Assembly: GCF_018336915.1 (NCBI RefSeq) | Contig: NZ_CP064923.1 | Location: 2,250,001 to 2,282,000, forward strand | Direction: 5' to 3' | Length of the DNA: 32,000 nucleotides | Origin: Acaryochloris marina S15 | Lineage (GTDB): Bacteria; Cyanobacteriota; Cyanobacteriia; Thermosynechococcales; Thermosynechococcaceae | Shown here: in pieces, positions 29,476 through 32,000 of the stretch | How positions within the stretch are numbered: position 1 is the stretch's first letter | Layout: each line of letters starts with the position of its first letter | Translations under genes and position numbers: made by a program | The notes under the pieces: generated by a model | Databases searched by the model: none | The model's input: the letters and a program-made list of their open reading frames with translations, nothing else | Told to the model about the DNA's origin: nothing

Positions 29476-29509
29476 ATGAATAGGATTGGGTGCGATCGCA
29501 TCCTGATAC
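29476..29509 (+). pseudogene. 5' fragment (start codon plus 11 codons) of the IS-disrupted TPS-domain exoprotein gene
   Basis: ATGAATAGGATTGGGTGCGATCGCATCCTGATAC encodes MNRIGCDRILI. It joins in frame to 31027 onward once the IS and one target-duplication copy are removed. Confidence 0.75.
29500..29509. repeat. target-site duplication, left copy (ATCCTGATAC)
   Basis: Identical 10-mer at 31017..31026. Each copy directly abuts an inverted-repeat end. Confidence 0.85.
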
Positions 29510-31016
29510 CTGACTTTTCCTGCTAAGTCTTCCAGTGCTTAGTGGGTGGTATTTGTAGCCCTTAGTCTCAGCCTTGGTTAAAGTAAGTGCAGTGATACCC
29601 AGAGAGCATCTAATGAGTCCAGAGCGTTATGAGCAAAATTTTGGAACCTGTGAGTTGGGTGATCAACGATTGAATCACCGTGCATTCAGTATCGGTCGTT
29701 CTCTGAGCGAGAAATTTGGTCAAGCCCTATCGACCGTATTTGAGACTGGGAAAGCCCTCAAACGGTCTTACGAGTTTTCGCAAATGTGAAAACCAGCTTC
29801 GCTAAGATTATTTCTCCTCATTGTTCTATGACCGCTTGTAGCGTATCGTCGCAAGAGATGACCTTGAGTGTTGGCGACACCACCTTCCTCGACTATGAAG
29901 GTATCAAGCAGAAGCGCCAAGGCTATGGTCCCCAAGGCAGAGGGGGGAATGGATTATTACTCCATAGTGCCTTAGCCGTTGACCCTGAGCAGGGCCAACC
30001 CTTGGGTTTGTTATGGCAAAAAGTGTGGAATCGTCAGCATCGTCCCAAGCCCCCGAAGAATGAAACGTCCCGACAAAAGAAGAAACGTCAGACCAAAGCG
30101 CGTAAAACTGCTCGGGAGCGTCTATTTGAGGAAAAAGAATCCTATCGTTGGGTGGAAGCACTGCACGCAGTGGAGAAAGCTGTGGGTCCTTCAACTCGTA
30201 TCATTCATGTCTTTGACCGAGAAGGAGACATTGCTGAAGTCTTTGAACGACTCAATACCCTAGACAATACGGGACTCGTGGTTAGAGCCTCTCATAATCG
30301 TTGTCTAGAACACGATCCTAATCGCCTGTGGGAAAAGCTGGAAGCCCAGAGTGTTCAGTTCGAGTATGAGATTGACTTACCTAAAACGAAAGGCCGGAGT
30401 GCGCGCACGGCTAAGTTAGCTGTGAGATGTTGTCTTGTTGAACTTCAAAGACCAGCCCGACTAGCTGCCAGTCAACCCCTTCAGGTTTACGCTGTCTATG
30501 CAACAGAAGTAGCCCCACCTGAAGGGGAAGAACCAGTGTCATGGATGTTGCTCACTAGTGAAGTCGTGACAACAGTAGAAATGGCCCAAACCATTTTGCG
30601 TTGGTACACCTACCGTTGGCGAGTTGAGGAGTATCACAAAGTTCTAAAATCGGGCACTCAGGTGGAGCGATATCGGTTGGCATCTGAGGGAATGAAAACC
30701 TTATTGGGATTCCTGTGTGTCACTGCTGTAGAGCTGTTGCGTGTGACTTATTTAGAACGAACACAACCTCAATTACCTGCACAAGATGTCCTCACGCCTT
30801 TACAGATCAAAGTTCTCATTGCCAAGACCCCGAAGGTACCTAAAACATTAACGGTGGCATGGGCTGTTCAAGCAGTTGCACGACTCGGGGGATATCTGGA
30901 GCATCGTCGAAACACACCGATTGGAATTCAAGTCCTGTGGAAAGGGTGGGCGAAGCTCAATGACCTGATTGAAGGCTGGCTGTTAGCTACCCAGGAGACT
31001 TAGCAGGAAAAGTCAG
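29510..31016 (+). mobile_element. IS4-family insertion sequence of the Tn5/IS50 type, 1507 bp
   Basis: Perfect 21-bp terminal inverted repeats: CTGACTTTTCCTGCTAAGTCT at 29510..29530, and its reverse complement at 30996..31016. By recollection, the ends share CTGACT...AAGT with the Tn5 outside end. A 10-bp direct repeat flanks the element, and a DDE transposase lies inside. Confidence 0.92.
29613..31003 (+). pseudogene. Tn5-like DDE transposase split by a -1 frame change near 29775-29786
   Basis: The N-terminal part (ATG 29613 to TGA 29789) and the 405-aa part (29786..31003) together resemble a Tn5 Tnp-sized protein. DDE contexts are VGDTTFLDY, HVFDREGDI and YRWRVEEYHKVLKSG (the Y-2-R-3-E-6-K motif). 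Homology passes from one frame (SYEF) to the other (ANVKTSFAKI) across a T4 run. Confidence 0.85.
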
Positions 31017-31026
31017 ATCCTGATAC
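31017..31026. repeat. target-site duplication, right copy (ATCCTGATAC)
   Basis: Identical to 29500..29509. Confidence 0.85.
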
Positions 31027-32000
31027 AACATTGGTTGAGGCCAGCCGTTGCTCCCCTGATGGGTGTGGTTTTGAGTCCACTGATGTTCTCAAAAATGGTG
31101 CTAGCTCAACTGATTGTTCCCGACAATACCTTGGGGCCGGAACAGTCCGTGGTTTCACCTGGGGCAACGGCTGATGAACTTTTTATTGAAGGTGGGGCTC
31201 AGCGAAATATGGCCCTCTTTCATAGCTTTGAACGATTTGGGATTAATCCCAATCAAACTGTTTTTTTTAGCAACCCAGCTGCCATCGAGAATATCTTTGC
31301 GCGGGTGACTGGAGGGACGGCTTCCAATATTAATGGTTTGTTGGGGGTGGATGGTCCCGCCAATCTGTTTTTCGTGAATCCTAGTGGGATTCTGTTTGGA
31401 CCCAATGCCCAGTTGGATGTGGCAGGAGCCTTTGTAGCCACCACAGCAGATCGATTTTTGCTCCCGAATGGCAATTCCTTTAGTGCCGTCAATCCGAACG
31501 CTCCTCCGTTGCTGACGGTTTCGGTGCCCTTGGGGGTTCAGTTTGGTGCTCCCCCTCAACCTATTTCGGTCAATGGTGCCACTCTAGAAACGGCTGTAGG
31601 AGAACCCTTGGCCTTGTTGGGGGGAGCCGTAAATCTCGATGGTACTGAAATTTTGGCTCCCGGAGGACGGGTGGGTCTAAGTGGTCTTTCCCAACCCGGT
31701 ACCCTTCTGTTTAATCTAGAGGCTGCAACCCCTGATACTTTTCTGACCGTTCCGGTTGGGGGACGGTCTAGTGTGACGCTTAATAATTCAACCATCGATA
31801 CGGTGGAAGAGGAGGGAGGAGATATTATCTTTCAGGCTGAGAATATCTTCCTCAATCAAACGAATTTATTCGTGGGGCTGAATGAGGATGTTGACGACGT
31901 TGATGCCCAAGGCGGAGCCGTTCTTCTCAATGGAACTGGAGATATTCAACTGACTGAAAGTACTGTTCGGAGTTTGGTAGAGGATCTGGGACAAGGTGAA
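31027..32000 (+). pseudogene. filamentous-haemagglutinin-type TPS (haemagglutination activity) domain exoprotein, 3' part of the IS-disrupted gene, continuing beyond the window
   Basis: Frame 0 is open from 30987 to the window end and is absent from the supplied ORF track because it has no stop. Translation: ...LAQLIVPDNTLGPEQSVVSP...FIEGGAQRNMALFHSFERFGINPNQTVFFSNPAAIENIFARVTGGTASNINGLLGVDGPANLFFVNPSGILFGPNAQLDVAGAFVATTADRF. This is the canonical TPS-domain pattern. An in-frame ATG at 31059 could still start a truncated product. Confidence 0.85.

Follow-up and report, generated by a model that had tools for sequence, protein, structure and literature searches.

An IS50-like insertion in the predicted signal-peptide codons of a TPS-TPR-CHAT gene of Acaryochloris marina S15: most likely a recent null or strongly reduced allele

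In the 32,000-nt stretch of Acaryochloris marina S15 DNA analysed here (the window, to whose positions all coordinates refer), an insertion sequence (IS) lies close to the start of a gene for a large protein with an N-terminal two-partner secretion (TPS) domain, whose orthologues continue into TPR repeats and a CHAT domain. The locus raises the question of what this insertion is and what it has done to the gene: whether it is a genuine and recent transposition, whether it fell within the codons of a signal peptide or in front of the gene, and whether the gene is now silent or expressed in an altered form. We consider it very probable that the IS entered the signal-peptide codons recently and that the result is a strain-specific allele, most likely null or strongly reduced.

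The element occupies 29510-31016 (1507 bp) and lies between perfect 10-bp direct repeats, ATCCTGATAC, at 29500-29509 and 31017-31026; in this orientation, the 10-mer has no further occurrence in the window. Its terminal inverted repeats (CTGACTTTTCCTGCTAAGTCT; 29510-29530 and 30996-31016) are 21 nt long and 100% complementary. In-silico removal of 29510-31026 (1517 nt) puts the ATG at 29476 in frame with the downstream sequence, and the restored product starts with MNRIGCDRILIQHWLRPAVAPLMGVVLSPLMFSKMVLAQLIVPDNTLG and is free of stop codons to the end of the window. The insertion point thus lies after the first base of codon 12 of the TPS-domain gene, and the part of the gene 3' of the element covers the hydrophobic core of the predicted signal peptide, the VLA/Q site and the TPS domain. 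The coordinates, repeats, duplication and in-frame excision given in the initial annotation all held on re-reading of the sequence, as did its remarks that the ATG at 31059 is in frame and that the 3' part keeps the hydrophobic core; an earlier in-frame canonical start 3' of the IS, the TTG at 31035, was absent from it. The features of the insertion site are the following.

29476-29509, + strand: severed 5' fragment of the TPS-TPR-CHAT gene, codons 1-11 and the first base of codon 12
29492-29499, no strand: highly iterated palindrome 1 (HIP1), GCGATCGC, adjoining the left target duplication
29500-29509, no strand: left 10-bp target-site duplication, ATCCTGATAC, present once at the empty site of eleven related loci
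29510-31016, + strand: insertion sequence, IS4 family, Tn5/IS50-like, 1507 bp
29510-29530, + strand: left terminal inverted repeat, CTGACTTTTCCTGCTAAGTCT, complementary to the right repeat
30996-31016, - strand: right terminal inverted repeat
31017-31026, no strand: right 10-bp target-site duplication, ATCCTGATAC
31027-32000, + strand: remainder of the TPS-TPR-CHAT gene, from the last two bases of codon 12 and running past the window end

The uninterrupted state of the site could be read in related genomes. The ten closest loci (L029-L038) are 10 of the 18 contigs with an exact match to a 66-aa open reading frame (ORF) of the window, and they comprise the chromosome of Acaryochloris sp. Moss Beach (L029, GCA_021497025; identified in PMC9029297), one further NCBI assembly and eight assemblies of public sequencing runs. 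Their upstream flank (window 18.3-29.5 kb) is 95.5-99.2% identical to that of the window, and at this identity they can be read as conspecific with the window strain. Three orthologous loci of other species came from a scan of one genome per species, among them that of A. marina MBIC11017 (L002), whose 82-87% nucleotide identity makes it a different species. The set of empty sites accordingly numbers 13, and with the window itself 14 genomes were compared.

At eleven of the 13 empty sites (MBIC11017 and the ten closest loci), the sequence reads GCGATCGC-ATCCTGATAC-AACATTGG, with the 10-mer in single copy, and the two more distant species are collinear and gapless at the insertion point. In BLAST comparisons with the window, each of the eleven loci yields two alignments that are broken at both ends of the IS and that have in common, on the related locus, precisely the 10 bases of the duplication (11/11), a pattern which is far beyond chance. 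The TPS gene is uninterrupted in all ten closest loci and is called there from the ATG equivalent to 29476, and the restored N-terminus is the same as the first 48 residues in four of the ten (L029-L032). The insertion at 29510 is absent from all related loci examined. The junction reconstructed in the initial annotation is therefore matched base for base by the uninterrupted orthologues of MBIC11017 and the ten closest loci, and the empty site that it implied is present in all 13 related Acaryochloris loci.

The position of the insertion relative to the start of translation decides whether the IS divides a signal peptide. No start codon precedes the ATG at 29476 in its ORF, an in-frame stop lying 8 codons upstream, and its equivalent was the choice of gene callers. 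It is kept in 14/14 genomes, including a 70%-identical orthologue in which the DNA upstream of the gene has diverged and in which the sole leader difference in length is an in-frame 6-nt indel. The two candidate starts 3' of the element are not conserved, since the three other species have TTA, GTA or TGC in place of TTG 31035, and six of the ten closest loci have ATA in place of ATG 31059, so that neither can be the native start. No start codon other than ATG 29476 is shared by the full set of 14, which places the IS inside the stretch that encodes the predicted signal peptide, as had been proposed. The restored leader of 38 residues is collinear with that of the 13 orthologues and consists of a basic n-region (three Arg, one Asp), the hydrophobic segment AVAPLMGVVLSPLMF and VLA/Q; in the 81 homologues where a Q-x-x-PD motif could be recognised, the leaders have a median length of 30 residues, with most at 23-41 and three at exactly 38. 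Read in this way, the insertion is in codon 12, within the predicted n-region of the signal peptide, and not upstream of the gene.

Several observations bear on the age of the event. Related strains carry the IS elsewhere, in copies which are 98.8-99.9% identical (1-14 mismatches; L016, L039-L045). The only further copy that is complete and has both flanks, in the Moss Beach strain (L039), is bordered by a 10-bp duplication, CTTTTGAAAT, at 2388-2397 and 3905-3914 of its contig, and relatives of the element with 68-80% identity (L019, L028) have 9-bp target duplications, as is typical of Tn5/IS50. The perfect repeats and duplication, the small number of mismatches to related copies and the absence of the insertion from related loci all agree with the earlier suggestion that the event is recent. 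Acaryochloris genomes are among the richest in transposases (PMC8763236), and the burst of ISAm1 in strain CCMEE 5410 provides a parallel, with strain-specific insertions that disrupt or re-regulate genes and many near-identical copies, although ISAm1, an unclassified IS whose inverted repeats are 14 bp long (PMC8763236), is not the element found here, and the target gene differs as well. The event in the window is an ordinary strain-specific IS polymorphism in an IS-rich genus.

Three other explanations can be set against a recent insertion in the signal-peptide codons, and the evidence weighs differently on each. The IS is multi-copy in the lineage and short-read assemblies collapse it to separate contigs (the 1507-nt contig L016 is an example), so a copy could conceivably have been misplaced at 29510-31016 by the assembly. 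We regard such an artefact as hardly credible, since the perfect duplication of 10 bases that are single-copy in eleven related empty sites is the signature of transposition and not of a mis-join, and an assembly error would not produce it; the second complete copy likewise has its 10-bp duplication. It is also very unlikely, in our judgement, that translation natively starts at TTG 31035 or ATG 31059 and that the IS consequently lies in a 5' untranslated or promoter region. In favour of such a start, the 38-residue leader is longer than the homologue median, and the DNA upstream of the gene is conserved too, so that conservation of the first codon alone is no proof of translation. However, ATG 29476 is retained even where the upstream DNA has diverged, the two alternative codons change in related loci as described above, and the leader frame is open in all genomes, its only indel being one that preserves the frame. 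A start at ATG 31059 would moreover give a leader of 16 residues that lacks a charged n-region and is as short as the very shortest leaders among the homologues.

The third alternative concerns expression. In the occupied state, ATG 29476 opens an ORF of 16 codons (MNRIGCDRILIPDFSC) that stops inside the left inverted repeat, while the TPS frame runs open from 30987 and meets its first canonical start at TTG 31035 (giving MRPAVAPLMGVVLSPLMFSKMVLA/Q) and the next at ATG 31059. The gene could be a re-wired allele under altered regulation, transcribed by read-through or from a cryptic outward promoter and translated from either of these codons with a shortened yet functional signal peptide. Such an outcome would be helped by the transposase gene, which is co-oriented with the TPS gene and whose stop (31001-31003) is 13 nt short of the IS end, and by the coding sequence downstream, which is intact as far as visible. 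Terminator-like sites occur only at the level of shuffled sequence, with none between the transposase stop and the TPS gene. The leader from TTG 31035, of 24 residues with one Arg, the full hydrophobic core and VLA/Q, falls within the homologue range. On the other side, a consensus scan of 29300-31300 found no sigma-70-like promoter on the + strand, including at the right end of the IS where an outward-reading promoter had been suggested in the initial annotation; reading of the sequence found no Shine-Dalgarno-like sequence near TTG 31035 or ATG 31059, and neither codon is conserved as a start. IS transposase promoters are typically weak, and an intact downstream sequence is to be expected anyway after a recent insertion. 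RNA folding of the two IS ends is no more stable than that of shuffles (z = -0.95 and -0.34). The initial annotation had left the choice between a knock-out and a re-wired allele; we judge the null or reduced state the likelier and the re-wired one unlikely.

A sequence of steps that would lead to loss of function can be proposed. A cut-and-paste, Tn5/IS50-like IS, active in the lineage, would have inserted within the first 12 codons and duplicated 10 bp of target, and would thereby have left the start codon and charged n-region on one side and the hydrophobic core, the cleavage site and all that follows on the other. The insertion would probably also cut the gene off from an operon promoter upstream of the neighbouring 60-aa, 66-aa and DUF928 genes. 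Residual expression would then need transcription out of the co-oriented transposase gene and, in addition, re-initiation at TTG 31035 or ATG 31059. On these grounds, the allele is most likely null or strongly hypomorphic.

Some points weigh against this assessment. The signal peptide was assessed by its composition and by comparison with homologues, and loss of function is what we infer from the arrangement of the locus. The 325 codons visible in the window are intact, with the 3' portion of the gene continuing past the window end. With a start at TTG 31035 a shorter signal peptide is plausible, and the allele may be leaky rather than null. Finally, no TpsB gene is nearby: none (ShlB/POTRA) was found among window ORFs of at least 120 aa, nor within 10 kb downstream in MBIC11017 or Moss Beach, so that the two-partner secretion route itself is one that we infer; a transporter may be encoded at another locus.

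The practical value of the allele is that of a natural, probably isogenic-like knock-out of an uncharacterised cyanobacterial TPS-TPR-CHAT module. As the gene is intact in at least ten close relatives, a comparison of strains could give a first handle on this widespread module. In the source genome, gene callers will miss or truncate the interrupted TPS gene.

The insertion point directly abuts a HIP1 site, as had been pointed out earlier, and this adjacency (29492-29499) stands, whereas its relevance does not. MBIC11017 and the ten closest loci, where the site is empty, have the palindrome as well. The 32-kb window holds 15 HIP1 sites, and chance alone would put an insertion right against one of them in about 0.1% of cases. 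We rejected HIP1 as a target signal: the insertions in L039, L040, L041 and L043 are without GCGATCGC within 30 nt of the IS end, and none was present in the insertion flanks of the relatives of the element, of which 20-25 nt were read. The adjacency is best read as coincidental, one post-hoc case proving nothing.

The transposase of the inserted element is encoded in two parts, joined at a break in the reading frame.

29613-29789, + strand: transposase orfA, 58 aa from ATG 29613, Tnp_DNA_bind; open from TTG 29574
29774-29781, + strand: frame-break site, GTTTTCGC, at which the Tn5-homologous frame shifts to -1 (...KRSYEF / FANVKT...)
29786-31003, + strand: transposase orfB, 405 aa, with DDE core, YREK motif (YTYRWRVEEYHKVLK) and Tn5 dimerisation domain

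The product of orfA (58-71 aa) matches Pfam PF14706 Tnp_DNA_bind (E = 4e-8) and NCBIfam NF049926 IS4_FS_Nterm (87.9 bits), and that of orfB matches DDE_Tnp_1 and, below Pfam's own cut-off, Dimer_Tnp_Tn5. When one T joins the T4 run at 29775-29778, the two fuse to a protein of 463 aa, which aligns end to end with the Tn5 transposase structure 1MUS (E = 2e-41); against NCBIfam NF033590 IS4 family transposase, the score is 351 bits with a cut-off of 160. The full-length alignment and the DNA-binding, DDE (YREK) and dimerisation domains are features shared with IS50/Tn5. The element ends in 5'-CTGACT ... AAGT, which we take to resemble the Tn5 outside end. An exact look-up of the 405-aa orfB product returned no record, and a megablast search of the IS against PLSDB plasmids gave no match.

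Members of the IS50 subgroup of the IS4 family are described as 1350-1550 bp long, with 5'-CT ends (PMC2266710, Table 1). Target duplications are 8-9 bp in the subgroup and about 10 bp in the IS4 family in general. The DDE transposase of the window element has the Y-(2)-R-(3)-E-(6)-K signature of the family, YTYRWRVEEYHKVLK, and the element shares the ends (CTGACTTTTCCTGCTAAGTCT) and the size (1507 bp) of the subgroup, from which it differs in its target duplication: at 10 bp in both complete copies, this agrees with the family but is one base longer than the subgroup range. By size, 5'-CT ends and predicted domain content, the element is a member of the IS4 family, IS50 subgroup. It departs in one respect from the definition of 2008, according to which the IS4 family is without frameshift and has a single transposase ORF (PMC2266710): here a conserved -1 break interrupts the frame at 29774-29781. 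As NCBIfam models both halves as IS4 (NF033590, NF049926), homology is our ground for retaining the element in the family, and we regard the no-frameshift hallmark as outdated for this clade. The existence of the IS4_FS_Nterm model means that the split arrangement is familiar to annotators.

The break is shared by relatives of the element. In tblastn comparisons, residues 1-55 align in one frame and all later residues in the -1 frame, the change falling each time at ...Y(E/A)F/FAN..., in all eight readable split relatives, which are the near-identical L016 and seven diverged elements (65-88% nucleotide identity) and come from Acaryochloris, Leptolyngbya and metagenomes. A split transposase is present in L016-L020, L022, L025-L028 and L039. 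The site GTTTTCGC is invariant in the eight split relatives (ATTTTCGC in L015), with synonymous variation in the neighbouring codons, and the -1 frame stays open, with conserved protein sequence, as far back as the T run, a point that precedes any conserved start codon. In a single-ORF relative, L021 (69% amino acid identity), one extra base is found at the position of the break, and the N-terminal domain is missing in about five sixths of the 120 best database homologues. We rejected a private inactivating mutation as the origin of the frameshift, since the break occurs in 8/8 split relatives with 65-99.9% nucleotide identity; its conservation across diverged relatives means that this IS copy is no private pseudogene.

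With regard to how the two frames might be joined, GTTTTCGC is not a canonical X XXY YYZ slippery heptamer. A +1 slip on the T4 run re-pairs perfectly, yet leads into the wrong frame. A stimulatory RNA structure 3' of the break was unsupported, the RNAalifold hairpin being weak (-3.2 kcal/mol) with zero covariation. We think it quite improbable, as a joint proposal, that the insertion acts as a natural on/off or re-wiring switch of the TPS gene and, as a separate matter, that G-UUU-UCG is a programmed non-canonical recoding site. If true, the switch would yield a TPS-TPR-CHAT protein with a shortened signal peptide, uncoupled from the operon beside the CHASE2 kinase, and the recoding would place a non-canonical site in a family long described as frameshift-free.

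The interrupted gene can be characterised from its restored N-terminus and its orthologues. The restored protein matches Pfam TPS PF05860 (E = 3e-51) over residues 41-245, and TIGR01901 was matched in the Moss Beach orthologue. Intact orthologues are 2090-2092 aa long; that of MBIC11017 (2092 aa), which is uninterrupted and 90% identical in amino acid sequence over residues 1-336, starts with a TPS domain and, after a long repeat region and TPR repeats, ends in a CHAT domain. Over the part of the gene visible in the window, amino acid identity is 94-96% with the ten closest loci and 90% with MBIC11017. The best hit of a protein search with the restored N-terminus is Acaryochloris protein P0001 (80% identical), and the collections searched gave no 100% match to the TPS gene. 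As in the TpsA exoproteins FHA and ShlA, a predicted N-terminal signal peptide directly precedes the TPS domain, and the predicted mature N-terminus Q-x-x-PDNTLG is common to about 80 cyanobacterial homologues. Unlike in TpsA proteins, the passenger ends in TPR and CHAT (caspase-like) domains, not in an adhesin or cytolysin, and the gene, which has no TpsB neighbour, follows DUF928 and two small ORFs beside a divergent CHASE2 histidine kinase.

In the six loci closest to the window, the upstream DNA is 98.6-99.2% identical to that of the window and the segment of the TPS gene (31017-32000) is much more diverged (93.1-95.2%), which suggests fast evolution of, or recombination at, the exoprotein gene. 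Part of this divergence is a polymorphism in the predicted signal peptide (AVAPLM vs AFTPLI).

Upstream of the gene lies a conserved neighbourhood.

28107-29423, + strand: genes for a 60-aa ORF, a 66-aa ORF and DUF928, with gaps of at most 13 nt; the TPS gene begins 52 nt on

Together with the TPS gene, these belong to a conserved module (24189-29423 and the TPS gene) that includes, on the minus strand, genes for a GGDEF response regulator and the CHASE2 histidine kinase. The order of 60-aa ORF, 66-aa ORF, DUF928 and TPS genes is shared with L001-L004 and L029-L038, and the order with the CHASE2 histidine kinase on the opposite strand followed by these four genes is also found at the P0001 locus. 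Because the upstream gaps are at most 13 nt, the distance to the TPS gene is 52 nt and the gene order is conserved, the 60-aa, 66-aa and DUF928 genes probably form one operon with the TPS gene. Between the Acaryochloris species compared (the window, MBIC11017 and IP29b bin 137), conservation of the 52-nt spacer (29424-29475; ttgaaagttgtgttttcccgtctttagtacactttca...) equals or exceeds that of the coding sequence on either side, and the spacer may be a regulatory element; a consensus scan of the spacer found no promoter.

Elsewhere in the window, a 567-aa ORF at 5161-6864 is without a Pfam match at E <= 1e-4. In the window, as in the other related loci that cover it, the CHASE2 histidine kinase is encoded by one gene of 797-807 aa. 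On the Moss Beach chromosome (L029 7195-9590, corresponding to window 25499-27892), it is called as two genes of 454 and 266 aa, and the kinase may be disrupted in that strain.

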